Source of the DNA: Minisyncoccota bacterium
GTDB lineage: Bacteria; Patescibacteriota; Minisyncoccia; Phycocordibacterales; CAIZLB01
Assembly: GCA_031973395.1 (NCBI GenBank)
Contig: DALYDD010000001.1
Location: 10,894 to 61,199 of the forward strand
Length of the DNA stretch: 50,306 bases
Reading direction: 5' to 3'
Every line of letters begins with the position of its first letter. Position 1 is the stretch's first letter. Positions 5,503-36,419 of this stretch are shown here, piece by piece. Made by a program: the position numbers and the translations under genes. The notes under the pieces are model-generated. The model saw nothing but the letters and a program-made list of their open reading frames with translations, was not told the DNA's origin and did no database searches.

Positions 5503-6654
5503 TCACTTGATCTTCGCAGGTTTGTTCCAAAGCAATTTGGCATCGCTCGGGCATTCCCCTGAAAGTAAGCTCATTGCAACCGCATAACGAAATCGATTTA
5601 TCCACTGGGAATTCCCAGTTCTCTTTGGATGGACGTAGTTTGTTAGACTGACGACGGCAGTGTCCAAGACTGGGAAAGCAGCGACCTGTACTCCAGTGAA
5701 ACCATTTTTGAAGATGGCGCCAGCAGAGTAACGAGGATGAATGCTTTCCATTACCCTCGTCATCGGATCATAGCCAGACGCGAACTCGGGCCATATCCCA
5801 AAACCAACACCGAACTCGAGGCCCGTCTGGAATTGGTTTTGACCCATCAGATCGAAGAACCTTTCGGCAATGATTTGCTGACTACCGATCGCACCTTTAT
5901 TCAAGATGAAACGCAGAAGTCGAAGCAAATCCGTACATGTCGCGAAGAGCCCAGCAGCTCCCAGCAGATCATTATTGCGAGTCAGTTCATCGTGCACAAT
6001 GCCATACAGAGGCCTCCCACTATCACCGATTTCAGTGGCAACCACTTTGTCGATGTATTGAGGAGGATTAAAAGTCGCATTCACCCACAGGGGAGCAAAC
6101 AAAACTTTTTGTGTGAGATCAACGAGTGACATCCCTGTCACTTCCTCCAGGATCTGAGCCAGGAGAATTGGTTGATAATTTCCATAGTGCAATTCGCCAC
6201 CAACAGTGACATGCGAAGTGATGATCTTGTGAAGCGCTTCGCCGGGTGCGAATTTGTACGGCTTCTTGAGTTCATCACGATGCAGACGCATGCGGTACGT
6301 CAGTAAGTCCAACACAGTCGGCTCCGTCGAATCAGTTGGTTGAAGTCCCGGAAAGAATTGCCTGATTGGAGTTTCCAATGTAAGCAAACCTTCATGAACC
6401 GCCCAAAAGACGAGAAGTGCGACCGGTAGACTTTTTGTCACAGACGCGACGTCAAAAAGAGAATTTTCATGAGTGGATACAACAGGGTCCCCAGGCAATG
6501 AGGAGTGTCGACCGAAATAGCGAGTGAATACAGAGTCTCCTTTCACGATCCCGAATGCTCCAGCGCTAAAATGCGTCCGAGCAATACAGGCTTGAGTAAA
6601 GAGAACACTTGGATCCACCAATTTCGGATTTGGTGCATAGTATAGCTTTTTCAT
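5503..6654 (-). CDS. serine hydrolase, beta-lactamase/DD-peptidase family
   Basis: SxxK active-site motif (ASVTKS) about 70 aa from the N-terminus. The 383-aa length is typical of class C beta-lactamase-like proteins. Confidence 0.85.
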   Translation of the reverse strand: MKKLYYAPNPKLVDPSVLFTQACIARTHFSAGAFGIVKGDSVFTRYFGRHSSLPGDPVVSTHENSLFDVASVTKSLPVALLVFWAVHEGLLTLETPIRQFFPGLQPTDSTEPTVLDLLTYRMRLHRDELKKPYKFAPGEALHKIITSHVTVGGELHYGNYQPILLAQILEEVTGMSLVDLTQKVLFAPLWVNATFNPPQYIDKVVATEIGDSGRPLYGIVHDELTRNNDLLGAAGLFATCTDLLRLLRFILNKGAIGSQQIIAERFFDLMGQNQFQTGLEFGVGFGIWPEFASGYDPMTRVMESIHPRYSAGAIFKNGFTGVQVAAFPVLDTAVVSLTNYVHPKRTGNSQWINRFRYAVAMSLLSGECPSDAKLLWNKPAKIK

Positions 6655-6715: not shown

Positions 6716-7411
6716 TTATGCGTGTCGATTATGTCTTTCCTCTTGTACCACCCCATCTTTCATTACCAAAATACGATCAGCTGCGCTTGTATATTCTTCT
6801 TCATGCGTCACCATCACAATCGTCTGACCTTTTTTATGTAAATCTGAAAAAATATCCAGAATCATGCGCGAACTTTCGGTATCCAGGTTTGCGGTCGGTT
6901 CATCGGCAAAAATTATCTTTGGCGAATGGGCGATGGCTCTTGCAATTGAAACGCGTTGCTGTTGTCCTCCAGAAAGTTTCGCTGGCAAATTATTAAATTT
7001 GTCCCCAAGACCAACTTTAGTGAGTGCCTCCTCTGCCATTTCATATGCATGCTTTGTTGTGTTCCCTTGCATAAGCAAAGGTACCGCAACATTTTCTCTC
7101 GCAGTTAAGTCAGGAAGCAAGGCATAATCTTGAAAAACATAACCAAGTGAATCGAGTCGGTATTTTGTTTTTTCATCATTAGAAAGTGTATGTGTATGCA
7201 CACCATTAATAACCACCTCTCCACTTGTCGGCTCATCCAAAAGACCCAACTGATATAAAAGTGTACTTTTTCCTGCACCGGATCGACCGATCACAGCGAC
7301 AAACTCCCCTTCTTTGATTTCCAAATCAATATCTCGCAGAACGCGTGTGACGCGATCACCGTCAGTGAATGTTTTTACTAGATTTTTTGTTTGAATGATT
7401 GGAGTGTTCAT
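6716..7411 (-). CDS. ABC transporter ATP-binding protein (MacB/LolD-type)
   Basis: Walker A GRSGAGKST, signature LSGGQQQRVSIARA, Walker B IIFADEPT. Confidence 0.93.
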   Translation of the reverse strand: MNTPIIQTKNLVKTFTDGDRVTRVLRDIDLEIKEGEFVAVIGRSGAGKSTLLYQLGLLDEPTSGEVVINGVHTHTLSNDEKTKYRLDSLGYVFQDYALLPDLTARENVAVPLLMQGNTTKHAYEMAEEALTKVGLGDKFNNLPAKLSGGQQQRVSIARAIAHSPKIIFADEPTANLDTESSRMILDIFSDLHKKGQTIVMVTHEEEYTSAADRILVMKDGVVQEERHNRHA

Positions 7412-7511
7412 AAAATTTTTCGTAAGGAAAATTTTTAAATATTAGTTTTTGATTTAGTAATTAGTTGGATTTCTCTTTTCTGTTTTTGGATAAAATTTTC
7501 TCTCGAAAATT

Positions 7512-8768
7512 TTAGCGACCCAAAATAGCATCAAGTGTATTTCTTTTTACAATCATGCGCGCTGGAATGAAGCCTGCGATGACGGATGCGATAAATAATG
7601 CGATGACGCGAGCGATCGACCCGCCAAGCGGTGCATACAAAATACCATCACTAAATGGAAAGTTGATTGGATGGGCATCGATGAATGGTACAAGGAATCC
7701 ATAGAGAACCACCATACCGATCGCCGATCCAATAATCGCATAAAAGACCGATTGGAACACATACGAATATTCGATAGCTTTCGAATGCACACCAATACCC
7801 TTTAGGATTCCAATGAATTTACGACGTGTAATGGCATTTACGAAGACCACAATAAATACCGTGATTGATGCCACAACAAGTCCGATCGAACCAATCATGT
7901 TTCCAAGCAGGCTGAACATGGCTTGGATATCTTTGAGGAACTTCGGCTGAGCCTCCTCAAATGTTTGAATCTTTGCATCGCCATCAAACCCATTGTGAAG
8001 CAAAACGCTTTTCACTTCCAAAATTTCCGAGTTAGGTGCATTCGGGGCGAGCTTCACCGCAATTTCATCGAGATTATAATCCGAGCGGCCGATCAATTTG
8101 CGAAGCTCTGACTGATTCATAATAACTCGAGCATCGATCTGATCGATTTTTGATTTCATGATACCGCGAATCACCACCTCTTTTGAATTTTTACCCACCT
8201 TCAAATTAACTTTTTGCCCGATAGTGATATTTCGTAATTGTTCCAAGCCTGGTGCGTCAATTGGAGTGAGTTCATTGATAAGAAATGCTCCGACCAACAC
8301 TCCATCGCGGTCGTTTTCATCAAGATACAATCCTTCCACTACGAATTTCGACAAGCCAGTAATTTCATCTTCGCGAAGCGGATTAATTCCAGCAATACTT
8401 GCCCCTGCAGCATTCGGCGTTTCATCATCACGCAAAATTCTTCGATAATCTGCATTCAATCGACCACCAGCAATAATTCGTCCAGTCACACTTTCTACTT
8501 GAGGCAAATTATTGAGAACACTCAAAATTTCATTTGAATGTTCGATATATGGATTTTGGCGCAAACTAGTGATGATAATATCTCCAGAATATCTTTCTCG
8601 CGCCGCTTCAACTGAACTTTGAATCAAACCGACCAGAACTCCGCTCACCACAGTGAGGTTCAAAAACGTCAAAGTCATGATGAGAATAATAAGTCCGGTA
8701 GTCCAAATACTGGCATGCTTTATTTGTCTGAGAGCTAGATAGAATGCGACGCGAAGATGGTTTTTCAT
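7512..8768 (-). CDS. ABC transporter permease, FtsX/MacB-type
   Basis: One N-terminal TM helix, a large extracytoplasmic domain and three C-terminal TM helices. Sits between the adaptor and the ATPase. Confidence 0.85.
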   Translation of the reverse strand: MKNHLRVAFYLALRQIKHASIWTTGLIILIMTLTFLNLTVVSGVLVGLIQSSVEAARERYSGDIIITSLRQNPYIEHSNEILSVLNNLPQVESVTGRIIAGGRLNADYRRILRDDETPNAAGASIAGINPLREDEITGLSKFVVEGLYLDENDRDGVLVGAFLINELTPIDAPGLEQLRNITIGQKVNLKVGKNSKEVVIRGIMKSKIDQIDARVIMNQSELRKLIGRSDYNLDEIAVKLAPNAPNSEILEVKSVLLHNGFDGDAKIQTFEEAQPKFLKDIQAMFSLLGNMIGSIGLVVASITVFIVVFVNAITRRKFIGILKGIGVHSKAIEYSYVFQSVFYAIIGSAIGMVVLYGFLVPFIDAHPINFPFSDGILYAPLGGSIARVIALFIASVIAGFIPARMIVKRNTLDAILGR

Positions 8769-8808
8769 AAGGAATGATGTGACTGATTTTTGAGCTGATG
8801 ATTACAGA

Positions 8809-10455
8809 TTATTTTGTTACGGCTTTCGGTACGCGAACAATTATTTTATCCTGTGCAGAAATACCAGAAACAATTTCAATATCACCATTTCGATCAATAC
8901 CACCCGTGGTCACAGGAACAAGTGTTGCTTTACCATCAACTTCTTTGCTCCATTCTACAGATCCAGCCGGAGCAACCTTTACATGCTTTTTCCCTTTTTC
9001 AAGAACGATTGCTGACTGTGGTACTTTTACTACATCCATTCGACGATCTGTTTCTACAATGACATTGGCCGTGAGACCAGATTTGATTCGCTCATCTTGG
9101 CTTATAAATTGCAAACGAGTTCGATATGTCACAACACCATCTTTGATCGTTTCAGATAAATCTACCAAACTCACAGCCGCATCGAATATAACAGCATCGC
9201 CCAAAGCATCTAGGGTCACTTTAGCATTTTGCCCTACCCTCAATTTCGGAACATCATTTTCAGAAACATATGTTTCGATTTCAAATGCAGCATCGCTCAT
9301 GAGAGTAATGACAGGTGTCGCCGCACTTACCGATTCACCGGTCTTATACTCAACCCTTGTCACAATTCCATCAAAAGGTGCGACAATAATTGTTTTACTC
9401 AGTGATGCGGAAGCGCTTGAGATACCCGCCGCAGCGCTTTGTGCCTGTGCACGCTGAGCAGCAATTTCTTCTGCTGTGCTTCCAGATTGTTTTAATGTCA
9501 GTTGCTCTTTTGCACGGACCAAGCTGGATTGATTATTTTTCAAAGTATTTACCGCAGTATTCAATGCCTGAACCGCACTGTTTACACTCGTTCTTGCTGC
9601 AATGATGCCGGTTCGGTAAGTAGCCATGCTCGGATCATTGTTTAGGTTCTCACCCATTGAAGTCATGGCAACATTCAAATCATTGAGGAAAGTCTGAGTT
9701 GCAGTTACATATTTCTTTGCCTCTGCAATTTTCGAATCGTCGATAGTCGCCGGCGTAAGTGTAGTTACCAATTTTTGCCAAACAGGAAATTGTTCTGTGA
9801 GACGGAGGCGCTGCGATTCAACCGAATCTTGCAATCGCGGATTTTGATCGACAAAGAATCTCAACTCCGGATTAACACTTTGTGGTGAATTGAAAACTTG
9901 GTCCGCTTGATTTTTTACCGCGTCTTCAGATAGTGCATACGAATCTTTTGTCTCTTCAATCACCGCCAAAATCGCTTGATCTACATTTTGTTGCGCGAGC
10001 TGTACATCAGATTGCGCAATGGCAATTTCTTGGGGACGTGCACCACGCTGGAGCTCAGCTAATCGCGCCTGCTCACTCTGATAGCTTGCCTGACTTTTAA
10101 CCACACTCGCCTGATAGTCAGCATTTGAAAGTCTCGCCAATGATTTACCTTTCTTTACTCTATCCCCCACCTTTACCTCTACCGAGGCCAATCGGCCAGA
10201 TGTCTCAAATCCCATATCCACTTTTTGGGCTGGAGTCACTTTTCCAGTCACAGAAACTTCTTGGACGAATTCTCCTTTCTCTACAATCTTCAATTCATAT
10301 GTATCAGCAGATGCACCGCCGCCCATACTCATCAAAAGCGCGACGATGATCACAATCGCGGAAACCCAAATACGCTTTTTCTTTTTATTTGTCCAGATAT
10401 ACGTAAAAAGGCTTTTTATTTTGTCGAAGAAGTTTTTGATTTTATTTTTGATCAT
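8809..10455 (-). CDS. HlyD/MacA-family periplasmic adaptor
   Basis: N-terminal membrane anchor, long coiled-coil segment rich in A/Q/L, beta-rich C-terminus. First gene of an adaptor-permease-ATPase operon. Confidence 0.8.
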   Translation of the reverse strand: MIKNKIKNFFDKIKSLFTYIWTNKKKKRIWVSAIVIIVALLMSMGGGASADTYELKIVEKGEFVQEVSVTGKVTPAQKVDMGFETSGRLASVEVKVGDRVKKGKSLARLSNADYQASVVKSQASYQSEQARLAELQRGARPQEIAIAQSDVQLAQQNVDQAILAVIEETKDSYALSEDAVKNQADQVFNSPQSVNPELRFFVDQNPRLQDSVESQRLRLTEQFPVWQKLVTTLTPATIDDSKIAEAKKYVTATQTFLNDLNVAMTSMGENLNNDPSMATYRTGIIAARTSVNSAVQALNTAVNTLKNNQSSLVRAKEQLTLKQSGSTAEEIAAQRAQAQSAAAGISSASASLSKTIIVAPFDGIVTRVEYKTGESVSAATPVITLMSDAAFEIETYVSENDVPKLRVGQNAKVTLDALGDAVIFDAAVSLVDLSETIKDGVVTYRTRLQFISQDERIKSGLTANVIVETDRRMDVVKVPQSAIVLEKGKKHVKVAPAGSVEWSKEVDGKATLVPVTTGGIDRNGDIEIVSGISAQDKIIVRVPKAVTK

Positions 10456-10480
10456 GGGTTTAGGTTTATGAACTTATGGA

Positions 10481-10972
10481 TTATTTTGTATGGTTGATAT
10501 CGGTGCTGTGATAATGATCTGTATTTGTAGAAAGAGATTTTAAAACTTTTTTTAGATGATTCGATAATTGAAGTCGTTTTGGATTTGGTATAGGTTTGAA
10601 AATTCTAGCCAACTCTTTGTCGAGAACGCCCAAGGTCTTGGCCACCATCTTTTTTCCTTTTGGCGTTACCTTGAGCATGACCCGCCGCTTCTCATTTGGA
10701 TCAGATGTCCTTTGTATAAGTTTATCACGCTCTAGAAGTCCTGCCTGCCTACTAATCGCAGCCTCCGAGACCCCCCATAGCTGAGCAATCGCAGTCTGCG
10801 AGCATTCATAACTTTTCTTGCAGTCATGTGCCCGTTCGATTGAAACAAGAATCTTGAATTGGGATAGACCGTATCCCGTATTTTCTTTTATAAAAGAATC
10901 CATGTGCCGATCCAATACCATAGCCGCACAGAGCAGAGGTTCGACAAATTGAATCTTTGGCTTGCGAAGCAT
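10481..10972 (-). CDS. MarR-family transcriptional regulator
   Basis: Winged-helix segment SQTAIAQLWGVSEAAISRQAGLLERDKLIQR...RVMLKVTPKG. Lies directly upstream of the efflux operon. Confidence 0.85.
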   Translation of the reverse strand: MLRKPKIQFVEPLLCAAMVLDRHMDSFIKENTGYGLSQFKILVSIERAHDCKKSYECSQTAIAQLWGVSEAAISRQAGLLERDKLIQRTSDPNEKRRVMLKVTPKGKKMVAKTLGVLDKELARIFKPIPNPKRLQLSNHLKKVLKSLSTNTDHYHSTDINHTK

Positions 10973-11058
10973 AATGCTTAATATGTTAAGTATTTATGGG
11001 GAAAAAGTCAATGACAGGAAGGTGATTTTATGGCTTGAATATTGAGTTTTGGCCGCTC

Positions 11059-11086
11059 TTGACATCCTCACAAAGAGTACTACAAT
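11059..11086 (+). promoter_or_regulatory. sigma70-type promoter of cassette 1
   Basis: TTGACA (11059-11064), 16-nt spacer, TACAAT (11081-11086). The same block recurs at 11662-11689. Confidence 0.6.
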
Positions 11087-11194
11087 TTTAACCATGTTCA
11101 CCTGAAAATGACGACCTCGAGGGAGACATTCGAAGGACGGGAACATCGTAGAAAGAACAAAAACAAAACACCAATAGAGAAAGAAACCGCCGCC

Positions 11195-11491
11195 ATGAAA
11201 GTAACACCACTCGTTGCCCTCACCATCGCAACACTTACCGCCGACGCACTCGCCAAACAGACCAGGGTCTCAGAACGGTTTGCCGTTCCTGAGTTCACCA
11301 GCCTCATGAGAGACGCCAACCTCCCGACCCTGTTCATGCGGGAAGCCAGGATCTGCTACTTCGTCACCATCGAAGGCAAAGTCATGTGTGCGACCAAAGC
11401 CGACGGCCAGTGGGCCTGGAAAGTTGAGGAAGTCTCACCGACCACCAGGATAGCGAAAGCTGCAGGGGCCTACATCGCCGCCCATCCGTAG
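11195..11491 (+). CDS. small secreted hypothetical protein (cassette 1)
   Basis: ATG at 11195 gives a Sec-type signal peptide MKVTPLVALTIATLTADALA. GC-rich relative to neighbours. The track ORF starts further upstream at 11108. Confidence 0.55.
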   Translation: MKVTPLVALTIATLTADALAKQTRVSERFAVPEFTSLMRDANLPTLFMREARICYFVTIEGKVMCATKADGQWAWKVEEVSPTTRIAKAAGAYIAAHP

Positions 11492-11546
11492 CTCGAGACG
11501 ACGCCCAAAAAAACACGGTCTGAAGACCGAGAAGTTTGCCGTTAAC

Positions 11547-11576
11547 GCCCGACTCAGGTTCTAATCCTGGTCGGGC
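11547..11576 (+). terminator. GC-rich hairpin in the conserved 3' block of cassette 1
   Basis: GCCCGAC(T)CAGG / CCTGGTCGGGC, 11 bp with one bulge and a 7-nt loop. No clear T-run. Confidence 0.45.
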
Positions 11577-11661
11577 ATTGCCATCTCTGGACCTTTTTAA
11601 ATAGTCGCATTTGCGTCGAAATAGAGTTTATTTTCATATTATCTTGCAAAAAACGCATCTC

Positions 11662-11689
11662 TTGACATTCCACAAAAGAGTACTACAAT
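11662..11689 (+). promoter_or_regulatory. sigma70-type promoter of cassette 2
   Basis: TTGACA (11662-11667), 16-nt spacer, TACAAT (11684-11689). Near-identical to the 11059-11086 block. Confidence 0.6.
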
Positions 11690-11827
11690 TTTAGATGTTC
11701 AACCTTAATACGCAGGCCATTTCGAGGGGTGCGCATAGAGGACGGGAACAACTAAGCTCCATCCAACCTACATAGGGGTTTAGAAGAGTACCCAACAAAA
11801 AAAACACTGCATCACAGTACCACCGCC

Positions 11828-12439
11828 ATGAAAGCAAACCCGACACTAACCGCACTCACTACAGCAGGCCTTGTCTTGCTCACACCGGCACTACTCAGCA
11901 CCGAAGCTCACTCCGCCGAGATCACACTGGAAATTCCGGATGTCCTCGTTGTCGACGGCTTCTTCAACAAAGAAAACATGCCGGGGCCCGACCCCAGGTT
12001 AATTCCAATCAACATTGACCAGGTCACCAGATTCATATTTACCCAGAGAGACTCCATCGCCAAATACCTCGATGAGCTCCCTGAGCTCGATCGGGTAAGA
12101 GCCTCTGAGGAAGTAACCCGCAAGTTGCTTGCCGAACCGCAAGCACTCGACAGCCACGGTCTGGCCGATGCAGACCCTGCCGAGAACGTATTTGACGACG
12201 GCGAGAAAGGTATTCGTGTCATCACGTGCCGCCCCTTGCTCGTCTATCTCATCACTGACGACGAAGGCGGTGTTGAGTGGTACGAACTCCTCAAAGACAA
12301 GTCAGGAGGGCTCGTTCTGCACAAAATTACCGACAGTCGCGCCTACGAGCACCCTCACGTGCTTACGATCGAGACTCATTCGGATTCGGAGGACGAAAGT
12401 CGCCCACAAGGAGAAGCTGAAGGGGAAATCGACTCCTGA
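11828..12439 (+). CDS. secreted acidic hypothetical protein (cassette 2)
   Basis: Signal peptide MKANPTLTALTTAGLVLLTPALLSTEAHSA and an acidic C-terminal tail. GC-rich: my hand count of 11821-11880 is 33/60 G+C. Confidence 0.6.
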   Translation: MKANPTLTALTTAGLVLLTPALLSTEAHSAEITLEIPDVLVVDGFFNKENMPGPDPRLIPINIDQVTRFIFTQRDSIAKYLDELPELDRVRASEEVTRKLLAEPQALDSHGLADADPAENVFDDGEKGIRVITCRPLLVYLITDDEGGVEWYELLKDKSGGLVLHKITDSRAYEHPHVLTIETHSDSEDESRPQGEAEGEIDS

Positions 12440-12476
12440 GAATCGGCTCGCCAAGCCAAGAGAAGTTCGCCATAAC

Positions 12477-12503
12477 GCCCGACGAGGCTAATCCTCGCCG
12501 GGC
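12477..12503 (+). terminator. GC-rich hairpin in the conserved 3' block of cassette 2
   Basis: GCCCGACGAGG / CCTCGCCGGGC, 10 of 11 pairs with a 5-nt loop CTAAT. Homologous to 11547-11576. Confidence 0.45.
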
Positions 12504-12647
12504 ATTGCCATCCCGAGATCTTCCCACCCCCGACAATTCCCTCTTTACCTTTTTCCAAACTTAACGTATAGTGCAAGTCATATATTACAGGCCTGACCGC
12601 CTTTTATTTTTTACTCAAAATTTACACAAACTGAACCGTTTAATAAT

Positions 12648-14432
12648 ATGCAAATTCGAAATATCGCCATTATTGCCCATGTAGACCACGGCAAAACAAC
12701 TATTGTAGACGCTATGATGCGTGCCTCTGGCGCCGTCAAAGAAGGTGCATCCAGCATGGACTCTAATGCCCTCGAACAAGAACGAGGTATTACTATTTAT
12801 GCAAAGAACGCCTCTCTTACTTACAAAGGCACAAAGATTAATATCATCGATACACCGGGCCACGCCGACTTCGGTTCAGAAGTAGAGCGCGTGCTCCGAT
12901 CTATCGACTGCGTGATCTTGATTGTAGATGCCCAAGAAGGTCCAATGCCTCAGACTCGTTTCGTTCTCAAAAAATCTCTCGAGCTTGGCCTTCGACCGAT
13001 TGTTGTTTTAAATAAATTAGATAAACCAGCTGCTGATCCCCATCGAGTGCACGATGAAGTTCTCGAATTATTTATGGAACTTGGCGCTGATGACAAACAA
13101 CTCGACTTCCCTACCGTGTATGCAGTTGGTCGTGAAGGAAAAGCCAAAATCAAACTCGAAGATGGATTTGTAAACCTCGATCCTCTTTTCGATATGATTA
13201 TTTCTCATATTCCTGCCGCAGCCGCAGATGCAGCCGCTCCGCTCCAGGCACAACCATTCAACCTCGCATACGATAACTATCTCGGACGAATGGCTGTAGT
13301 TAGAATCTGGAATGGTACGATCAAGACGAATGCGAATGTTTTCGTAAAAAAAGCAGACGGTTCCATCAAGACTGGCCGCGTCACCAAGATTTTCGGTTTT
13401 GAAGGAATGGGCAAAAAAGATGTAGCCGAGGCTATGGCAGGTGACGTAGTCATGATCGCCGGTATTCCTGAAATTTATATTGGAGATACCGTCGCAGATG
13501 CTGAGACCACACCCGCATTGCCAACAATCACTGTCGACGAACCAACGATTTCATTGGGCTTCCTCGTAAATGATTCCCCTTTTGCAGGTAAAGAAGGAAA
13601 ATTTGTAACCAGCCGACAAATTCGTGACCGACTCGAAAAAGAGCTCGAGGTAAACGTGGGATTGCAGGTTGATTTCAATGAAGCAGATACATTCAAAGTA
13701 TATGGACGTGGAGAATTACACGTTGCGGTATTGCTCGAACAAATGCGACGTGAAGGTTTCGAACTTCAGGTTTCTCAACCAGAAGTTATTATGAAGGATA
13801 TTGACGGAAAGAAATGTGAACCATTTGAAGAAGTGATCATCGATACACCTGATGAGTTTTCTGGAGTTATTATCGAAAAACTCGGAAAGCGCAAAGGAAT
13901 CATGTCGAATATGATCCAGAAAAACGGCGGTACACGATTGTCATTTGAGATTCCAACTCGTGGACTACTCGGTTACCGAAGTCAGTTCGTTGTTGATACG
14001 CGAGGTGAAGGAATCATGTCGAGCCGTTTCGTAGGATTTAAACCTTATGCTGGCACTATTGAGAAACGTGCAGTGGGCTCGATGATCTCCATGGAAGCGG
14101 GAAAAGCTTTACACTTTGCCCTTGGTGGTCTACAGGATCGAGGAATTCTGTATATCACTCCCGGTACCGAAGTATATGCAGGTATGGTGATTGGCAATAC
14201 ATCAAAAGGTGAAGAAATGGAAGTGAACCCTACAAAAGGAAAACAACTCACAAACATGCGAGCCTCTGGGACTGACGCAACAGTATATTTGAACCCTGCA
14301 CAGGAAGTTACTATCGAGCGAGGACTCGAAATCATGACCGATGATGAATATTTGGAAATCACCCCTTTGAGCTCTCGTCTACGAAAGAAGTATTTGACCA
14401 AGACCGATCGAGATAAGGCCAAGAAAAAGTAA
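12648..14432 (+). CDS. typA: translational GTPase TypA/BipA
   Basis: [14 protein letters not shown] and NKLD motifs. 594 aa with a BipA-like C-terminal domain. Confidence 0.95.
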
Positions 14433-17123: not shown

Positions 17124-19628
17124 ATGCCCAAACACCTACCGCACCTCCTTTTTGCATACGTACTCCCAATTCTCCTGATCCTATGCTTTCTTCTACTCTT
17201 CAGCTTTAAATTTTTTGCCATATTCCAATCCCTGCCTTATATAACAGGCTACGACAATCCAACACATTTGGCGACCATTGAGGTATATACCAAGACCATT
17301 TTCCCTTCTCTTTGGGGATGGGTGCCAAACTGGTATGCAGGCATGCCCCTCCCCCTCTTTTATCCTCCTGCGGCATATTATCTAGGAAGCCTTCTTCTAC
17401 CATTTTTTAGTTCTGCTGTTACTTTTTACAAAATATATTCATATCTTCTATATATCCTCGCAGCCATCGTCTCATTTATTGTTTTGAAAAAGATATTTTC
17501 AAAAGAGTTAGAACCTAATGAGCACGAGAAGGCCAAGGTAGCAGGCGCCTCGAATGCCAAAAAATATCTTTCTATTTTTAGCAAGCAGATACCTGTCGTC
17601 CTGGCTGTTGTCACCATTTTTTCGTTTAACCCCGGTGCACCAAGCACAAATGCAATGTCTGATGGTATTTTGAGCCATCAATTCGCGATGATATGGCTCA
17701 TAGTGGGCACATACTGCTTATTCAAACAAAAGCCTTTTTATTATGTGCTCAGCATCATTTCATGGATGATGATTATTTTGTCGAATACACATGCTTTTTT
17801 AACCGGCACTTTATTTTTGTTTTTTTTATGCCTCCTGTGGCCATTTGCATATCCAGATGGACAAAAGGCTCGGCAATTCTTTTTGCAGACTCGGCGTACA
17901 GTCCTGATTCACATCTCAGCCATTCTCGCATCAGCCTGTTGGGTTTTTCCAATGCTGGTATTTTACAGATTCTTTACCGGTATACACATAATGGATCCGA
18001 GCCTGAGCACCCGCTTCTTTGCTTCTTGTTGGATTATTTTGGTTGTCTCAGGATTAGGTATTTTTATCGCTAATTACGAAGACAAGCATAAGCTTCGTCA
18101 AATATATCTAGCAATATTCGCTTCATTTGGTTTCTTATTTCTCATAGAAATAATCCAGCGAGTATGGCACACCAACCTCGGACTACCCATTCAATTATGG
18201 CGATGGTATGAGACCTTATTCTGGCTCTGTTCTATTCCGCTTTGCCACGTCTTTATCTTTTTTATAAAAAGAATTAAATACCTAAGTGTAGGTGTTTTAT
18301 TATTGATTTGTATTATAACGGCAATGCGGCATGTCAATTTTCATGCAATTTACGGCAATTATAGACAAGACCAGATCGACAGACTTGTTCAAAAAGTAGG
18401 AAGTGAAACCGGTGCGCACGACTTGGTATTGGTCCACGGTCGCGGCTATCCAGCTTTTACCAGACTTCGACAAATGACAATTGATGCGCGCCTAGGTGCC
18501 AATGGAAACAGCACAACATTTAGCAATCTTCGTGAATCGAGCATCAATGCGATATTTCTCCGCATCGCCAAGAAATTTGTTTCAAGAGCCGAAGAAGATT
18601 GGGCTTTGATAAATTTTGCTCAAAGCACCACCCTAAAGAAAAGCGATTTGGAGAGACAGGCTGCGCTGCTCGAATTTCTCGGAATTAAAAAGGTTGTTTT
18701 AAGCAATGACGACCTGTCCGCCCCAAGTGATGTAGTAGATATTACCTCTATAAAAAGTTACAAAATCGATAAATCGTTCCCTGGATTTTCTATCCTTACT
18801 TCCAAGAAAGAAATCTCTCGGGCATCGTATATGCAAGGACCACTGACACTACTCTTCCTAAAGGACGGATTCAAAGACCGAGAAAAGATAGATCCGACAT
18901 ATACTCGATTTCAAGAAACTGCTTTTGAAAAAAGCCTCTACCGGAAATCAATATCTTTTGCTCCGAATAATCCACTCATAGAAAATAATGAGAAAGAAAT
19001 CCTCCTCTCTAAATACATTGTCATTGCAAATATACAAACAAAAGATATCGACAAGGTTATAGAGATTTTCCGTCGAGCACTAAAGACTAATCCAGAAAAA
19101 GTTATATATATACTCACAGAAGACACAATCGGGTACAAGACTCTTGCCAAAGTCTTTGCAGATAATAAACAAGTTCAATTCATACGCCCTATCAATGCCC
19201 GTTACCCATTTAATGAGACGGTTGATGCCATAATTAAAAACGAAAAGAATCTCAAGGAATATCCGGCCACAGTAACTTTTATGGACAATGCCTTACATCT
19301 GCGTACCCCTACGAGCACGGCTTTCAAGACAAATAAAACACCTACAGATATATCAAATCAGAAATTTTGGTTTATTCGGCAAAGTTATTTTCCTGGCTGG
19401 AAAGCAATCAATAATAAAGCTGCACAACCAGATACATACCTAGCGAGCCCTGGGTACACAATGGTTTTGCAAGACGACAATGCGCAGGAACTATCGCTTT
19501 ATTTTGAGACGCCGCGCATCGTTATCGTGAGTCATATCATAAGCCTCATTACCCTCCTATCCATCCTAGGCTATGCAATAGCCGCATATATCACATCGAA
19601 AAAGACATCTCCACACAGAAGCCTATAA
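17124..19628 (+). CDS. large polytopic membrane protein, possibly YfhO/GT-C-like glycosyltransferase
   Basis: 834 aa with many N-terminal TM helices, a large soluble domain and one C-terminal TM helix. The family assignment rests on architecture only. Confidence 0.6.
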   Translation: MPKHLPHLLFAYVLPILLILCFLLLFSFKFFAIFQSLPYITGYDNPTHLATIEVYTKTIFPSLWGWVPNWYAGMPLPLFYPPAAYYLGSLLLPFFSSAVTFYKIYSYLLYILAAIVSFIVLKKIFSKELEPNEHEKAKVAGASNAKKYLSIFSKQIPVVLAVVTIFSFNPGAPSTNAMSDGILSHQFAMIWLIVGTYCLFKQKPFYYVLSIISWMMIILSNTHAFLTGTLFLFFLCLLWPFAYPDGQKARQFFLQTRRTVLIHISAILASACWVFPMLVFYRFFTGIHIMDPSLSTRFFASCWIILVVSGLGIFIANYEDKHKLRQIYLAIFASFGFLFLIEIIQRVWHTNLGLPIQLWRWYETLFWLCSIPLCHVFIFFIKRIKYLSVGVLLLICIITAMRHVNFHAIYGNYRQDQIDRLVQKVGSETGAHDLVLVHGRGYPAFTRLRQMTIDARLGANGNSTTFSNLRESSINAIFLRIAKKFVSRAEEDWALINFAQSTTLKKSDLERQAALLEFLGIKKVVLSNDDLSAPSDVVDITSIKSYKIDKSFPGFSILTSKKEISRASYMQGPLTLLFLKDGFKDREKIDPTYTRFQETAFEKSLYRKSISFAPNNPLIENNEKEILLSKYIVIANIQTKDIDKVIEIFRRALKTNPEKVIYILTEDTIGYKTLAKVFADNKQVQFIRPINARYPFNETVDAIIKNEKNLKEYPATVTFMDNALHLRTPTSTAFKTNKTPTDISNQKFWFIRQSYFPGWKAINNKAAQPDTYLASPGYTMVLQDDNAQELSLYFETPRIVIVSHIISLITLLSILGYAIAAYITSKKTSPHRSL

Positions 19629-19670: not shown

Positions 19671-20297
19671 TTAGATCCTCTTAATCCCAAGAACAAATCG
19701 ATACTCACTATCTTTTATTTTCACATTAGACATATTGTCAGGCTGAACTTCAAGTAGGGTGATTTCCAAACCATTTACTTTTACCGATTGGCCAACTTCC
19801 AAAACATTTCCAGCAGTCACTAGCTCCGCTTTTGTATTTGGGTTTAACAAGCGCAAAGCGACACGAATCTTCCCCGCCCAAACACAATCTACATCAGAAG
19901 GACACCTGCTGTCTTCGAGCACCGCCCATGGATATATCAAAACTTGGTCAGCTACGCGAGTGCCACCAACAATGTGACCTTGAGATAAAGGAATTGAGAT
20001 AGGGCTTTGATATCCAGTATTCTGCACCGGTTGTGATGGTTCATTTTGTCCCGAACCGTTCATATCATTCGCTCCAGTATTTGTAGTTGATGTTGGCAAT
20101 TGAGAATTATGTAAAGCTTGAGTAGTCGAGGCAGTACTTGTCGCATAGATATCCGGTGGGATAGGCGGTTCTTCCGAAACTGTTTTGGACCCACTTTTAA
20201 TGAAATACAAAATAAAAATTGCCAAAAGTGCGACAATGAGCACAATGACGAAAATAAACCTATTTGACCCATTCTTTTCCGGAGTCTTTGTTTCCAT
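19671..20297 (-). CDS. membrane-anchored hypothetical protein
   Basis: N-terminal TM helix (FIFVIVLIVALLAIFILYFI), a low-complexity S/T/N/Q linker and a C-terminal beta-rich domain. Confidence 0.6.
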   Translation of the reverse strand: METKTPEKNGSNRFIFVIVLIVALLAIFILYFIKSGSKTVSEEPPIPPDIYATSTASTTQALHNSQLPTSTTNTGANDMNGSGQNEPSQPVQNTGYQSPISIPLSQGHIVGGTRVADQVLIYPWAVLEDSRCPSDVDCVWAGKIRVALRLLNPNTKAELVTAGNVLEVGQSVKVNGLEITLLEVQPDNMSNVKIKDSEYRFVLGIKRI

Positions 20298-23452: not shown

Positions 23453-24151
23453 TTAGTTCGTAAACTTGAAAGTAGCAAACATTTGATTAAGTGTTTCAAA
23501 TTCAGGGCGCAAATCTTTTTGCGTATCAGAATCATCATCTGGGGCGACCCGATATTTAACAATATAACATTGGTTATTATGCATAATATGATATTCGCTT
23601 TCTATACTTCCTTTGATCACATCTTTCATGCCAAAAGATTCTTGGTTTTCTTTAACCACAGAAAAAGCATTGCCATTTATCATCTTTATTCCCGCCATTT
23701 TATTTGTGCCGGAAATATTCAGACAATCTTTAATTATAAAATCTTTGTCTCGTGCGAAGATTTCAAAACTATAGTAGGCATTTTTGTCGGAATAAGTAAA
23801 GTGATCAATATTTGATACCTCATTTGAAATAATCGCGCTTTCAAATTTAAAACCGGGAGCAACTTTCATCTCATATTTATAAAGATCACTCACATGTGTT
23901 TTCCAATCAGCCCTGATGACAGGGTTTGTTTTTGTTGTATCAGTACTTTTCACTTGGTTTGGAGTTTGTGCGGAAGTAGAAGTAGAGACAGAGGCGCGCG
24001 TTGTCAAAGGATTTTCTGTAGAACGAGTCCGTGTATCCTCTGCAGTATCATCCCCTTTGCTACCCATATAGGCATATATCCCTACCCCGAATAATACGAT
24101 TGCAACAATCATCAACAAAGCAATCACCGATCCTTTTTGTGAGTTTTCCAT
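23453..24151 (-). CDS. membrane-anchored hypothetical protein
   Basis: N-terminal TM helix followed by an S/T-rich linker. No motif recognised. Confidence 0.6.
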   Translation of the reverse strand: MENSQKGSVIALLMIVAIVLFGVGIYAYMGSKGDDTAEDTRTRSTENPLTTRASVSTSTSAQTPNQVKSTDTTKTNPVIRADWKTHVSDLYKYEMKVAPGFKFESAIISNEVSNIDHFTYSDKNAYYSFEIFARDKDFIIKDCLNISGTNKMAGIKMINGNAFSVVKENQESFGMKDVIKGSIESEYHIMHNNQCYIVKYRVAPDDDSDTQKDLRPEFETLNQMFATFKFTN

Positions 24152-25739: not shown

Positions 25740-25811
25740 CGCGGCTGATGGGTGCTGACCCCACGGCCTCTCCCGTGACAGGGGAGTGCTCTACCGTTGA
25801 GCTACAGCCGC
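25740..25811 (-). tRNA. tRNA-Asp (GUC)
   Basis: Hand-folded cloverleaf: acceptor GCGGCTG/CAGCCGC, D arm GCTC-AACGGTA-GAGC, anticodon loop CTGTCAC. The T-loop GTCAGCA is atypical. Confidence 0.8.
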
Positions 25812-26012: not shown

Positions 26013-26732
26013 TCAGGCAGCTTGACGCAGGGTCCTCACATCAAACTCAAATGGCTCGTAATAATTGTCATAGACAAGTTGGCCAAGGGCTGCTTTTTCA
26101 GCGACCCACCGGCGATGTCCGTCGAGTACCAGATTTCGAGTCACCAGAGGGCAACACTCGCTGGTGTCGATCACAAGATCGAACATGTCATCCGTCCACA
26201 TGCAGCCCTTGTGGTAGAGCTCTTCGTAGCGGAACACATCGTCCTGATCACGTCGGCGCAAACGGTCTAGCACACGTGAATACCGCTTACCCAATTGAGC
26301 CGCACGACGTCGTGCACAGACTTCAATGGGGCATTTCAGCCGCACCTTGTAATCCCCTAGAAGGACCAGATGTGTAAGACGGCCTTCAAAGACGGCGCAT
26401 CTGTAGGCACCTCGACAATTCATCATCTCGTCGACTGCGTAGTCATGACCCGCTTCGGGATGTTTCCGATTGAAGCGCGCGAATGCCTCAATATCCGGGA
26501 AACCAAGCTGCTGCGCGATCATCCGCATGGTATCCCCTGCGGATACATAGGAGTAGCCCTCGCCGAGAGCCTCTCGTAATAATTTGAGCAGAGTACTACG
26601 ACCGCAGGCTGAAAGTGAACTAATTGAAATCTTGTCGGGGAAAAAGAATTTGGGTGTGATTATTTTTCGGGAAGGTGGCAGTGTCATAGGAAAAAACGGG
26701 GTTAGGGTGGCAGAAAAACAAAAAACACACAT
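26013..26732 (-). CDS. cytidylate-kinase-like / P-loop NTPase-like hypothetical protein
   Basis: ISISSLSACGRSTLLKLL...YVSAGDTMR resembles the CMP-kinase-family N-terminus but has GRST in place of GKST. GC-rich: my hand count of 26101-26160 is 37/60. An alternative start is ATG 26687. Confidence 0.55.
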   Translation of the reverse strand: MCVFCFSATLTPFFPMTLPPSRKIITPKFFFPDKISISSLSACGRSTLLKLLREALGEGYSYVSAGDTMRMIAQQLGFPDIEAFARFNRKHPEAGHDYAVDEMMNCRGAYRCAVFEGRLTHLVLLGDYKVRLKCPIEVCARRRAAQLGKRYSRVLDRLRRRDQDDVFRYEELYHKGCMWTDDMFDLVIDTSECCPLVTRNLVLDGHRRWVAEKAALGQLVYDNYYEPFEFDVRTLRQAA

Positions 26733-26796: not shown

Positions 26797-26870
26797 TGTC
26801 AACGGCTGGGATCGAACCAGCGACCTGAGGCTTATGAGTCCTCCGCTCTAACCAACTGAGCTACGTTGAC
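26797..26870 (-). tRNA. tRNA with CAU anticodon (elongator Met or Ile2)
   Basis: Acceptor GTCAACG/CGTTGAC, D arm GCTC-AGTTGGTTA-GAGC, anticodon loop CTCATAA, canonical T arm GCTGG-TTCGATC-CCAGC. Confidence 0.9.
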
Positions 26871-26930
26871 GTGGTATTTTTATAACATAAACTAGGCCTA
26901 AAATAAAGCCTCAGCCGGCTTTGCCGCTCA

Positions 26931-27026
26931 AATAATACATAAGAGAAAATCCTTTGCCTCCGCAGGTTGATAGGGTCACCCTAATCGAAACCGAGGACAG
27001 CAAAGGATTTTCTCTTATGTATTATT
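26931..27026 (+). repeat. extended-hairpin element H1 (conserved core, private 26-bp arms)
   Basis: 26931-26956 is the perfect reverse complement of 27001-27026. The core 26957-27000 is shared with 27210-27264 and 37114-37168. Confidence 0.75.
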
Positions 27027-27100
27027 TGGTTGCGGGGCCAAGAATTGCACTTGGTCCTCAAGGTTATGAGCCTTGCATGCAACTGTTACACCTCCCCGCA
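27027..27100 (-). tRNA. atypical tRNA-Met-like gene (CAU), CCA encoded
   Basis: Acceptor TGCGGGG/CCCCGCA, then A and CCA. Anticodon arm CAAGG-CTCATAA-CCTTG, T arm CCAAG-TGCAATT-CTTGG. The D loop AACAGTT lacks GG. Confidence 0.6.
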
Positions 27101-27190: not shown

Positions 27191-27283
27191 AAAAATTATA
27201 ATCACTTCTGAAGTGCCTCCGCAGGTCGATCAAGTAACCCTAATCGAAACCGAGGACAGTACGAAGAAGTGATTATAATTTTT
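27191..27283 (+). repeat. extended-hairpin element H2
   Basis: 27191-27209 is the perfect reverse complement of 27265-27283. The 55-nt core differs from the H3 core at only 4 positions. Confidence 0.75.
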
Positions 27284-28007
27284 ATATAAAATAAAACTCC
27301 TCGAAAACCCTTCGATAATAATCAATCACTTTTCGAGCTTCGGTATAAGAAAGCTCATAAGCGGAACCTTCATGGGCAATGGTATTTCGAATCTTGTGTC
27401 CTTTCCAAGCTTCATCAAGCGTAGAGAAGAAAGATCGATCCGCAGATTTTAATTTTTCGCCTAAATCTTTACCGGGCAAACCCATTTGCTCCAACATATT
27501 AAATAAAACGATATCTGCCTCAAGAATTGCCAAGCGCCAATCTGCAGGATTTGCAGAATTAATTTTTTGTTCAATATCGAGCCATTGTTCATTTCCACCC
27601 TGTGCCGTTGGTCCATGTATACCCGCACCTGCTCCAGCCAAAGACGGCCCACTCACACCAGGTGGAGCAAACACTGGTGCACGCGCCGCATACCAAGCCT
27701 CAATGATTTGTTTTCGTCTGAGTGAAGCATATGAAATAAGGACGATGAAGAGTAGAGAAATAAAAATAGCAAAGAAAGTATACATAGTGAATACTTTGGC
27801 AACAAAACCAATGAAAGCCTCTTTGAATCGACCTTCACCAGAAAATATTCCTGTATCGACATTGAATGCTCCGAGTACCGCAGGCAAAACCACCAAAGCA
27901 AGCAAGACAAATACGCCCGCCCAAACAACAATGTCTTTTTCAAGAGAGCTTCCCGCGGGAGCGGGTGCCGCTGGTTTTTTGCCTTTATCTGATGGTTTAT
28001 CTGCCAT
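27282..28007 (-). CDS. membrane protein with C-terminal HEPN-like (R-x4-H) helical domain
   Basis: Two TM helices, a Gly/Ala/Pro linker, then ...WKGHKIRNTIAHEGSAYELSYTEARKVIDYYRRVF. ATG at 28007 preferred; the track ORF starts at 28040. Confidence 0.6.
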   Translation of the reverse strand: MADKPSDKGKKPAAPAPAGSSLEKDIVVWAGVFVLLALVVLPAVLGAFNVDTGIFSGEGRFKEAFIGFVAKVFTMYTFFAIFISLLFIVLISYASLRRKQIIEAWYAARAPVFAPPGVSGPSLAGAGAGIHGPTAQGGNEQWLDIEQKINSANPADWRLAILEADIVLFNMLEQMGLPGKDLGEKLKSADRSFFSTLDEAWKGHKIRNTIAHEGSAYELSYTEARKVIDYYRRVFEEFYFI

Positions 28008-28064
28008 AAATATAGATCCATTATACACCTTCACGGGCACGCGTCGCCACTATCGGCACAAAGC

Positions 28065-32121: not shown

Positions 32122-32769
32122 CTAGAACGTAAGCAAGAGTCCTCTTTCCACTACACGCGGACGTTCGAGATTACAACCCGAACTTCCTGCCCCTCCACCA
32201 TATCCATAACCATACCCACCCGTACCACCAGCAATAAGATCGGTATTATATCCGCGTGAGTCTATAGATGTTGATTCGGCACCAGTTGCGGGATCAAATC
32301 GTTTACCTACAGTTACATATGCACAAGCTCGGTAACTGCTATCATCAGGATCTCGAAAATCAATATAAAAAGTAGAAGTCGCCTCTGTTGCAGAGGGGCC
32401 GCACAAACTATCGTCACAGACCTTACTGAAACCATAGACTTCACCACCTCCATCACCCGTACTACCTGAACCACATACCAAATGCAAATCTGGAGGGGTT
32501 GTGGTACCAAAAGGACTTTCGCTTATAGTGAAGCCACTCGCATCCTTTCTATCCCAAAATAGGGTGCATTCCGCCGCACTATCTGCCGCATAAAAAGCTA
32601 CCTGTGTACCACTCCCCGAACTCGAGAGGAGAAGCTGTTTGATCAAGATATTCCCAACCGAAAATCCAATCGCCAAAAGCAAAGAGGAGACGAGCAGAGA
32701 GACAAAAAGAGTAAATGCCCTATTCTTTCCTTTTATTTTTTCCGCATATGCTTTAACGAGTTTTTTCAT
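32122..32769 (-). CDS. pseudopilin-like membrane-anchored protein with Gly/Tyr-rich C-terminus
   Basis: N-terminus KNRAFTLFVSLLVSSLLLAIGF is pilin-like but lacks Glu5. C-terminus contains GGTGGYGYGYGGGAGSSG. Last gene of the pilin block. Confidence 0.55.
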   Translation of the reverse strand: MKKLVKAYAEKIKGKNRAFTLFVSLLVSSLLLAIGFSVGNILIKQLLLSSSGSGTQVAFYAADSAAECTLFWDRKDASGFTISESPFGTTTPPDLHLVCGSGSTGDGGGEVYGFSKVCDDSLCGPSATEATSTFYIDFRDPDDSSYRACAYVTVGKRFDPATGAESTSIDSRGYNTDLIAGGTGGYGYGYGGGAGSSGCNLERPRVVERGLLLTF

Positions 32770-32784
32770 AATAGATAAAATAAA

Positions 32785-33429
32785 TTAATTTGAAAAACTC
32801 TGGATTTTCCAATTGGTAAGATTCTCTCGCAACTTGAATTGATACATGCCTCCGGTCTGCGCCCATTTCATAAGCACCTCAACGGCTATTTCATGAGTGC
32901 CCGAAGAATCACCTGGCGCTTCGTGAAAGGTAATTTCTCTCGTATAAATCGATGGCTTCAGATTACCAGCCCCTGTTTCGCCATATGTTCCATTGTCAAC
33001 ATTTACATTCAGAAGAGCGCAGGTATTGCTCGGGCAAGCTTCAAGTTTATACCCACCTGCAGTTCGTACTAAAGAATACTTTTGCGGTGCAGGAGTCGAA
33101 GCATTAGCAAGAGCAGGAGCAGTTTCCAAGACCCCAGAGAGATATGTCATTTCCTGAAGCCATTCTGATGCTGAAATATTTCTAAAGGAATTGCGATCGC
33201 GAAGGTTTCTGATATGTTCAATTGATTCTTGGGCCAAATAATATGCAGTCATTTGATCTCGAGCAAAGAATGAGGTCCGTAAAGCCTGTGAGATGATGAC
33301 AATGGGACCAAGGACCGCAATAACAAGGATTGAAATAGCAACCAGGGATTCGACAATGGTAAAAGCTCCTGTTGTGGGTTTTGTGACCTTGTTCGCATCA
33401 GCACCTACTGTGCCTATCTGCAGCTTCAT
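32785..33429 (-). CDS. minor pilin with prepilin-type N-terminal cleavage/methylation motif
   Basis: G-AFTIVESLVAISILVIAVLG class III signal. Start chosen at ATG 33429. Confidence 0.75.
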   Translation of the reverse strand: MKLQIGTVGADANKVTKPTTGAFTIVESLVAISILVIAVLGPIVIISQALRTSFFARDQMTAYYLAQESIEHIRNLRDRNSFRNISASEWLQEMTYLSGVLETAPALANASTPAPQKYSLVRTAGGYKLEACPSNTCALLNVNVDNGTYGETGAGNLKPSIYTREITFHEAPGDSSGTHEIAVEVLMKWAQTGGMYQFKLRENLTNWKIQSFSN

Positions 33430-33473
33430 ATAATATTCTTTGATTTTGAGAATGGGATTTTTCATAAGAATAA

Positions 33474-34121: not shown

Positions 34122-34128
34122 ATATTAA

Positions 34129-34800: not shown

Positions 34801-34833
34801 AATAGGAAAACATTCAACGCTGTTCAAATTCGA

Positions 34834-36404: not shown

Positions 36405-36419
36405 CAGACTAAACTGAAA

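Follow-up and report, generated by a model that had tools for sequence, protein, structure and literature searches.

The vsp and vpma gene families of Mycoplasma combine a highly conserved 5′ untranslated region (UTR) and signal-peptide region with remaining coding sequence that shows no significant homology (PMC2268961). A similar organization, in two copies, is present in a stretch of 50,306 nucleotides (nt) from the Minisyncoccota contig DALYDD010000001.1, which was analysed over its whole length and is referred to as the window. Two tandem units on the + strand, cassette 1 (11056-11598) and cassette 2 (11659-12556), have in common a promoter, an ATG just past the -10 box, leader motifs, an A-rich tract, ACCRCCGCCATGAAAG, the start of a signal peptide and a 3′ stem-loop. 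Their open reading frames (ORF1 and ORF2) appear to encode unrelated exported proteins. The pair probably arose when, in this lineage, one expression-and-export unit was duplicated in tandem at a fast-evolving slot between a marR-hlyD-ftsX-abc operon and typA, in a Paceibacteria-type member of the candidate phyla radiation (CPR).

As in the vsp/vpma and vlp-type systems, the genes lie at one locus of a reduced-genome, host-dependent bacterium, and a conserved 5′ UTR and signal region is joined to a divergent mature part. In contrast to those systems, the locus comprises just two copies, both with a complete promoter of their own and a conserved 3′ module, and it shows no adjacent Xer-type recombinase, no inverted gene orientation and no sign of phase variation. 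The lipobox pattern [LVI][ASTVI][GAS]C, and with it the lipobox cysteine, is absent from the first 45 residues of both ORFs, and tandem repeats are found neither in the units nor in the mature parts. An A8 run in leader 2, considered as a possible hypermutable tract, lies outside the promoter spacer and the coding sequence. The vsp/vpma families are the nearest analogy; as it lacks the lipobox, the recombinase switch, the multigene array and the repeats, the locus does not belong to this family. Integron gene cassettes are likewise variable ORFs, each with a 3′ imperfect palindrome. Here, in contrast, there are no attC cores, no integrase in the window, a promoter for each unit, two units only, and conserved 5′ as well as 3′ ends. 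The locus is not an integron cassette.

Metatranscriptomics of cultured Paceibacteria placed signal-peptide genes of unknown function among the highest expressed, and roles in host attachment were proposed (bioRxiv 10.1101/2023.08.25.554742). Cassette 1 resembles these genes in being among the most abundant transcripts seen for its organism. Those proteins have recognisable folds for adhesion or peptidoglycan binding, whereas neither a domain nor a homolog is detectable for ORF1 and ORF2. An attached life on other cells is assumed for CPR/Patescibacteria, and the molecules at this interface are mostly unknown orphans. As a transcribed locus with a pair of orphan, presumably secreted, proteins, the cassettes provide candidates for a role in cell-cell contact, and their syntenic slot allows the turnover of secreted orphan genes to be followed across related genomes.

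Shared elements of the two units

The elements of the two units are as follows.

11056-11090, + strand: promoter block of cassette 1, with -35 box TTGACA (11059-11064), -10 box TACAAT (11081-11086) and a 16-nt spacer that holds the conserved AAAGAGTAC
11094-11105, + strand: ATGTTCA of cassette 1 at the predicted transcript 5′ end, 7 nt past the -10 box, opening the three-codon mini-ORF ATG TTC ACC TGA
11117-11145, + strand: leader motifs TCGAGGG-N10-AGGACGGGAACA of cassette 1, identical in cassette 2
11156-11171, + strand: A-rich tract AACAAAAACAAAACAC of cassette 1, ~25 nt ahead of the start codon of ORF1, aligning with AACAAAAAAAACAC of cassette 2 (11794-11807)
11195-11491, + strand: ORF1, 98 amino acids (aa), signal MKVTPLVALTIATLTADALA with predicted cleavage before KQ; an alternative in-frame start at 11108 gives 127 aa
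11516-11598, + strand: 3′ module of cassette 1, with small hairpin CGGTCTGAAGACCG, GAGAAGTTTGCC, main stem-loop (11547-11576), ATTGCCATC and CTCTGGACCTTTTT
11659-11693, + strand: promoter block of cassette 2, with -35 box 11662-11667 and -10 box 11684-11689 (repeat and promoter scan)
11695-11775, + strand: ATGTTCA of cassette 2, 5 nt past the -10 box, opening a 26-codon upstream ORF that crosses the leader motifs
11722-11728 and 11739-11750, + strand: leader motifs TCGAGGG and AGGACGGGAACA of cassette 2, inside the 26-codon upstream ORF
11828-12439, + strand: ORF2, 203 aa, signal MKANPTLTALTTAGLVLLTPALLSTEAHS with predicted cleavage before AE; acidic C-terminal tail
12445-12556, + strand: 3′ module of cassette 2, with small hairpin GGCT..AGCC, GAGAAGTTCGCC, stem-loop (12477-12503), ATTGCCATC, a terminator remnant and a T-tract

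The promoter blocks, which a preliminary description of this DNA had called near-identical, agree at 86% of 35 nt and contain a perfect 19-nt core, AAAGAGTACTACAATTTTA; a degenerate pattern of the 5′ block has exactly two matches in the window, whereas shuffles predict 0.00. Read as TTGACA-16-TACAAT, both promoters score 11/12 and are the best promoter-like sites of the region in the promoter scan. Each unit is presumably a separate transcription unit with a near-consensus, sigma-70-type promoter. In the leaders, the equal spacing described earlier is also borne out, TCGAGGG (11117/11722) and AGGACGGGAACA (11134/11739) being offset by 17 nt in both units, and the N10 between these perfect motifs matches at only 1 of 10 positions. 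The leader motifs are not conserved as coding sequence, because the upstream ORFs of the two cassettes differ in length and frame. The start region CC(G/A)CCGCCATGAAAG is shared as described, at 11187 and 11820. Like TCGAGGG-N10-AGGACGGGAACA, it is found a single time in each unit, and neither the rest of the window nor the relatives fetched for comparison contain it.

Identical positions of the two units are strongly clustered (z-score (z) 13-14; 0 of 5000 shuffles). They form runs of 19, 12, 12, 10 and 7 nt in the 5′ region and of 14, 11, 8 and 8 nt in the 3′ region, while the remaining aligned columns are ~40% identical, with 36 and 74 gapped columns. Since identity is confined to short islands, it points to conserved cis-elements and not to a fresh copy. 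The homology runs ~45 nt into the signal-peptide coding sequence and restarts ~20-35 nt past the stop codons, which points to a mature-protein part that, in copy 2, would have been replaced or have diverged beyond recognition. The shared blocks may have been held constant by purifying selection or short-patch conversion as the intervening DNA diverged to background.

The main start codon has the context ACCRCCGCC-ATG-AAAG in both units and lies ~100 nt (unit 1) and ~133 nt (unit 2) downstream of the conserved ATGTTCA, with neither a Shine-Dalgarno (SD) sequence nor a -10 box. Both leaders are rich in A and poor in T (T 0.11 and 0.17). Folding them against shuffles, in line with the earlier suggestion to test the leader for structure, gave nothing significant (z +0.4 for cassette 1 and -0.6 for cassette 2), and a riboswitch-like leader was rejected. 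Searched with Rfam covariance models, the window reaches gathering score at four tRNAs alone, and 10900-12700 yields nothing below E=6 in a search extended to E<=10. In cassette 1, ATG 11108 is in frame with ORF1 and lies two bases past the mini-ORF stop TGA (11103-11105), a stop-restart geometry that is absent from cassette 2. A start there, as a possible alternative for unit 1, would yield a 127-aa product with a charged N-terminal extension of 29 aa.

How such transcripts might be translated is suggested by the other genes of the window. SD-like cores precede 2 of 42 gene starts (4.8%, against 6.2% at random positions), and in 24% of the 42 genes the start codon follows 4-11 nt after the end of a strong -10 box, a five-fold enrichment over the 5% at random positions. 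Because SD cores are at background and -10 boxes near starts are enriched, the host appears to be SD-independent, with many leaderless mRNAs. The conserved ATG of both cassettes (11094, 7 nt; 11695, 5 nt) fits the leaderless geometry relative to the -10 box. This AUG, 5-7 nt past the -10 box, would be the point where transcription begins. Ribosomes may then load either at the 5′-terminal AUG or on the open A-rich, U-poor leader and subsequently reach the main AUG, as might be expected in a host that lacks SD sequences and has many leaderless mRNAs. Mycobacteria have leaderless mRNAs with short upstream ORFs. The likeness to these is a very short ORF that begins with the AUG at the predicted 5′ end and precedes the main gene, in a host rich in leaderless starts; the difference is that the upstream ORF has 3 codons in unit 1 and 26 in unit 2, and a functional connection with main-ORF translation is speculative. 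The compact set of promoter, 5′ AUG, leader motifs, start context and 3′ stem-loop may represent an efficient expression unit that uses neither an SD sequence nor a simple leaderless start, and could be useful for CPR genetics.

Downstream of both ORFs, GAGAAGTTYGCC (11529/12460), TAACGCCCGAC (11543/12473), CTAATCC and CGGGCATTGCCATC (11572/12499) are likewise present once in each unit and absent from the remainder of the window and from the fetched relatives. All motifs of the previously described 3′ hairpin module are therefore present. The gap between GCC and TAAC, 2 bases in copy 1 and 1 base in copy 2, is the one small correction to a description whose sequence statements and positions otherwise hold throughout. 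The main stem-loop of cassette 1 pairs GCCCGAC-T-CAGG with CCTG-GTCGGGC around the loop TTCTAAT, and that of cassette 2 pairs GCCCG-A-CGAGG with CCTCG-C-CGGGC around CTAAT. Both are more stable than shuffles (z -2.7 to -2.8 for cassette 1, -2.0 for cassette 2), and the change of the inner stem from CAGG/CCTG to GAGG/CCTC amounts to one compensatory pair between the units. The U-run lies 14 nt from the inner stem in unit 1, where an extended outer stem would come within 3 nt of it, and ~40 nt away in unit 2. The stem-loop presumably ends the transcript, protects and stabilises its 3′ end, or does both. The stem-loop of cassette 2 is followed by the remnant of an ancestral terminator, CCCACCCCC (12523-12531), which lacks the right arm, and by the T-tract CTCTTTACCTTTTT (12541-12554); the canonical counterpart in the relative L004 reads CCACCCCCC..GGGGTGGGGCTCTTTTCTTTTTC.

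The 3′ hairpin loops (11559-11565 and 12488-12492) hold CUAAUCC, which is complementary to GGAUUAG, the universal '790-loop' sequence of 16S rRNA. The reverse complement of cassette 1, CCAGGATTAGAACC, is similar to 16S CAGGATTAGATACC; the match is short and was noticed post hoc, and the complementarity is probably due to chance.

The segment with the two units has a G+C content (GC) of 0.48-0.55 against ~0.42 in the flanks, in agreement with the GC-rich segment reported earlier. Independent assemblies of three riverine runs (X1, X2 and X3) match the segment exactly, and X1 contigs bridge both marR to cassette 2 and cassette 2 to typA. The tandem arrangement is thus not an assembly chimera.

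Coding capacity, predicted export and transcription

Because both ORFs are orphans, their coding status needed proof. Codon-position composition is non-uniform in ORF1 (p=7e-7) and ORF2 (p=4e-12), and the leaders and 3′ regions show no such periodicity (p 0.67-0.99). A codon-usage score trained on the long genes of the window is positive solely in the annotated frame of both ORFs. That the units instead specify abundant non-coding RNAs, with the ORFs as accidental open frames in T-poor sequence, is an explanation to which we give almost no weight. It would account for an abundant RNA from a GC-rich island in an AT-richer genome and for the lack of protein homologs, and a 98-codon open frame has p ~0.018 per frame in this composition. 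However, the 203-codon frame has p=2e-4, three-base periodicity is confined to the ORFs and the positive codon score to their annotated frame, both ORFs begin with canonical signal peptides, Rfam gives no match and the leaders fold no better than shuffles. We conclude from these sequence properties that both ORFs are genes for putatively exported, soluble proteins, and the possibility that they are non-coding, named with the preliminary description, is not supported.

The Sec signal peptides noted earlier are recovered by a heuristic check of n-region, h-region and -3/-1 residues, which is not a trained predictor. ORF1 begins with MK, LVALTIATLTA (hydropathy 2.13) and ALA before KQ, and ORF2 with MK, AGLVLLTPALL (hydropathy 2.19) and AHS before AE; in both, a basic n-region and a hydrophobic h-region are followed by small residues at -3 and -1, which give cleavage sites of AxA type. 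A heuristic scan found neither a Tat motif nor a later hydrophobic or transmembrane segment in either ORF. The Sec-type signals would thus export two small soluble proteins, one basic and of ~9 kDa, the other acidic. Mature ORF1 has ~78 aa (8.8 kDa, isoelectric point (pI) 9.1, 2 Cys), and mature ORF2 has ~174 aa (19.5 kDa, pI 4.4).

As stated in the preliminary description, the mature proteins show no mutual similarity: ORF1 and ORF2 give a BLASTP E of 5.3, their mature parts score below shuffles (z<0) and the ORF DNA is at z 0.07. The sole significant match on reading through ORF1 and ORF2 is the known 3′ block. Paralogy by way of the C-terminal AYIAAHP*LET and AYEHPHVLTIET was considered and rejected, the match being significant at neither the protein nor the DNA level. 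Among 5.8 billion indexed proteins, neither ORF has a homolog, and none was returned for ORF2 when 1.84 billion cluster representatives were searched exhaustively with phmmer. Comparison of both with Pfam, NCBIfam, PHROGs and PDB gave nothing credible; a PDB bacterioferritin at E ~0.7 and a PHROG at E 0.16 were taken as noise.

The limits of the homology also invite the idea that unit 2 was copied from unit 1 and that a new or heavily remodelled mature region, made by insertions and frame changes, was born within the kept promoter, leader, start and signal, which gave it expression and export at once. The arrest of the homology inside the signal peptide and its return past the stop codon are what gene birth would leave, ORF2 lacks any relative even in the exhaustive search, and its AlphaFold2 (AF2) model is of low confidence and partly disordered, with an acidic tail. 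Yet ORF2 has strong codon periodicity and the same preference for C at third positions as ORF1, which suggests long-standing translation. Moreover, no frame-shifted DNA similarity to ORF1 is detectable, and unit 2 RNA was not found. Gene birth in a duplicated frame is thus an unlikely origin of ORF2.

Exact cassette 1 RNA contigs occur in two wastewater metatranscriptomes. In run X4 the contig covers 11136-11350 and is the sole exact fragment; in run X6 it covers 11375-11515 and has a depth, a crude measure of expression, of 47.3; X6 has just three more exact fragments over 40 kb, with depths of 38.6, 5.2 and 3.1. The fragment at 38.6 belongs to a pilus-cluster gene (32785-33465) without a Pfam match. 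The transcriptome check suggested earlier therefore succeeded for cassette 1 and found no RNA of cassette 2, which is apparently silent. The slot gene of L004 is in none of the RNA runs searched.

The marR-typA slot and the origin of the pair

The slot is bounded by the following features.

10481-10972, - strand: marR-family regulator gene (Pfam MarR_2 1.3e-7, MarR 1.1e-6), divergent from cassette 1
10983-11011, - strand: promoter-like site of marR, TTGACT-17-TAACAT, whose end lies ~10 nt ahead of the marR start codon ATG (leaderless geometry)
12648-14432, + strand: typA/bipA (Pfam GTP_EFTU and BipA_C; synteny), the conserved right-hand edge of the variable slot

The closest TypA relatives are four metagenome-assembled genomes (MAGs; L004-L007) of Parcubacteria/Paceibacteria type, whose TypA is 87-90% identical to that of the window; the assignment of the host to CPR/Patescibacteria is thereby supported. 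The order ABC-FtsX-HlyD-MarR-slot-TypA is conserved, and the content of the slot varies: a 131-aa ORF in L004 and in L007, a ~204-aa ORF in L005, and ~300 bp without a gene in L006. In the more distant relatives L008-L011, marR and the slot gene are absent and hlyD abuts typA. In L006, ~200 nt of non-coding remnant (5700-5860) still separate the promoter region of marR from the element upstream of typA, which suggests that this lineage lost the slot gene. All slot genes are orphans, carry an N-terminal export signal and are GC-richer than their own genome, and those of the relatives lack the cassette blocks. The slot thus looks like an old, vertically inherited, fast-evolving position.

The cassette 1 promoter is positionally orthologous to the slot promoters of L004 and L007 and shares TTGACA...AAGAG...TAC.ATTTTA with that of L004; its position and part of its spacer would be ancestral to the clade. 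The L004 and L007 slot proteins are weakly similar to each other (z 4.4), as are ORF1 and the L004 slot protein (z 3.5), so that ORF1 may be a diverged ortholog of the single-copy slot gene. A corresponding match of ORF2 with the L005 slot protein (203 and ~204 aa, with similar signal peptides) was rejected, as z 1.9 is not significant.

Base composition and synteny bear on an acquired origin, in which both genes and their regulatory DNA came as an islet from a GC-richer donor and were inserted between marR and typA. GC at third codon positions (GC3) is 0.70 in ORF1 and 0.61 in ORF2 against 0.38 in the host, and third-position C/(C+T) is 0.71-0.84 against 0.27-0.44 in host genes; both genes are orphans, and long leaders are atypical of a largely leaderless host. 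However, the slot genes of the window, L004 and L007 are C-rich and T-poor despite unalignable sequences, with a weaker bias in the GC-richer L005, and in 3 of the 4 genomes with a slot gene the bias reaches the non-coding leaders. The compositional shift is therefore a property of the locus. In addition, the orthologous promoter, the retained terminator remnant and the weak similarity of ORF1 to the L004 and L007 slot proteins speak against acquisition, and neither flanking repeats, mobility genes nor a donor-like sequence among the 5.8e9 proteins were found. We consider acquisition doubtful.

The marR-typA slot of this Paceibacteria clade may be a hotspot of innovation, in which a fixed expression-export frame, made up of a strong promoter, an SD-independent leader, a signal peptide and a 3′ stabiliser, repeatedly hosts new or extremely fast-evolving secreted proteins. 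Some process peculiar to the locus would hold transcribed DNA rich in C and poor in T in several lineages. This bacterium would then have two such frames in tandem, each with a different orphan used at the interface with host or competitor cells. So extended a reading is an unlikely one.

The preliminary description had interpreted the conserved ends as a cassette system for secreted factors, exchanged by recombination. In this integron- or shufflon-like scheme, the 5′ and 3′ blocks would serve as recombination handles for swapping secreted cargos, which would explain conserved ends around middles without detectable relation, and one chromosomal slot that holds different genes in different relatives. 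The search for further blocks went against it. The 5′ block pattern has no match in GTDB (one genome for each of 185,579 species) or IMG/VR. The 3′ pattern has none in IMG/VR, and its three matches in JGI metagenomes are chance occurrences inside unrelated coding DNA. Four riverine assemblies, three of them with the full locus (~6x), show no third copy when compared with cassette 1 at 80% likeness, the sole recovery being the promoter core of cassette 2. Only two copies were found, and they are adjacent. Pfam comparison of the 46 ORFs of the window reveals no integrase, transposase, other recombinase or phage gene. The attC cores RYYYAAC/GTTRRRY are in neither 3′ block on either strand, their sole matches lying in the typA promoter (12559 region). 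Moreover, short islands split by diverged DNA and indels are ill suited to homologous exchange, the blocks are missing from the slot genes of relatives, and the slot gene of the L004 species is identical across four assemblies. Exchange of cargos is distinctly improbable, less likely than acquisition or gene birth, and the locus reveals no new mobile or recombination system. A simple, recent local duplication with a diverged middle had been named as the outcome that would speak against a cassette system. This is close to what was found, since the blocks occur only here. Nevertheless, the duplication is neither recent nor simple, and one of the ORFs is expressed.

Several observations weigh against a lineage-specific tandem duplication as the origin of the pair. 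The islands shared by the cassettes are absent, save for the promoter core, from the slots of L004, L005 and L007; the similarities that tie ORF1 to the slot genes are weak, and a profile of ORF1 with the L004 and L007 slot proteins retrieves those three sequences alone. The foreign-like composition also fits horizontal acquisition. Single-sequence AF2 models of the two proteins, with predicted local distance difference test scores of 35 and 47, are unusable. The RNA evidence consists of assembled contigs that lack strand, transcription start sites and 3′ ends, and no cassette 2 RNA was detected in the RNA assemblies despite the near-identical promoter. Neither 3′ hairpin is called by a terminator scan, and no U-tract directly adjoins either of them. 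The riverine test for a third copy was sensitive to an exact core of ~19 nt at ~6x coverage. Even so, tandem duplication of one expression-and-export unit remains the reading that we favour.

The divergent marR operon and surrounding genes

The marR gene is the first of a marR-hlyD-ftsX-abc operon on the - strand (6716-10972), with HlyD_3, FtsX and ABC_tran domains encoded downstream. Its promoter-like site overlaps the palindrome-like TTAATATGTTAAG, and this box is conserved in L004-L007. The back-to-back -35 boxes of marR (11011-11006, - strand) and cassette 1 (11059-11064, + strand) are 48 nt apart. A divergent promoter at ~48 nt from a MarR gene is the usual geometry for MarR-controlled divergent genes. 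The cassette promoter region has a weak inverted repeat, CTCTT-N12-AAGAG, together with a conserved AAGAG in the spacer that is shared with L004, and no clear palindromic operator. Since the promoter is shared, common transcriptional control of both cassettes is plausible, as had been suggested before; control of both promoters by MarR is also plausible and would explain the conserved promoter spacer. The layout recalls emrRAB, in which a winged-helix MarR gene heads an operon with an HlyD-type membrane-fusion protein and a transporter, here with a divergent promoter; in contrast to emrRAB, the transporter is of the ABC/FtsX (MacB-like) type and the cassette promoters lack a clear operator.

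Between cassette 2 and typA, an element at 12565-12617 consists of (T/C)GTATAGT, followed ~20 nt on by AGGCC-N6-GCC and TTTTATTTTTT. It is kept in L004 (~5865-5915), L005 (~5868-5920) and L006 (~5858-5905) while the other intergenic DNA is saturated, and the (T/C)GTATAGT box is also present in L007. The element is possibly the typA promoter together with a short attenuator-like hairpin; RNAalifold found no consensus structure on it.

Elsewhere, the window encodes LepA, Mur ligases, the ABC-FtsX-HlyD exporter, a two-component system, PPDK, pyruvate kinase, GatCA, LigA and a type IV pilus cluster. Four ORFs, at 17124-19628 (+), 19671-20297 (-), 23453-24151 (-) and 27282-28040 (-), have no Pfam match at E<=1e-5, and one of them has 834 aa. 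A second GC-rich spot, unrelated to the cassettes, is a cytidylate-kinase-like/AAA_18 gene at 26013-26732 on the - strand (GC 0.53, GC3 0.52). It is flanked by tRNA genes at 25740-25811 and 26797-27100 and was possibly acquired. The type IV pilus cluster (32122-45450) contains several N-methyl pilins, a prepilin peptidase, PilC, two T2SSE ATPases and PilM/PilO-like genes.

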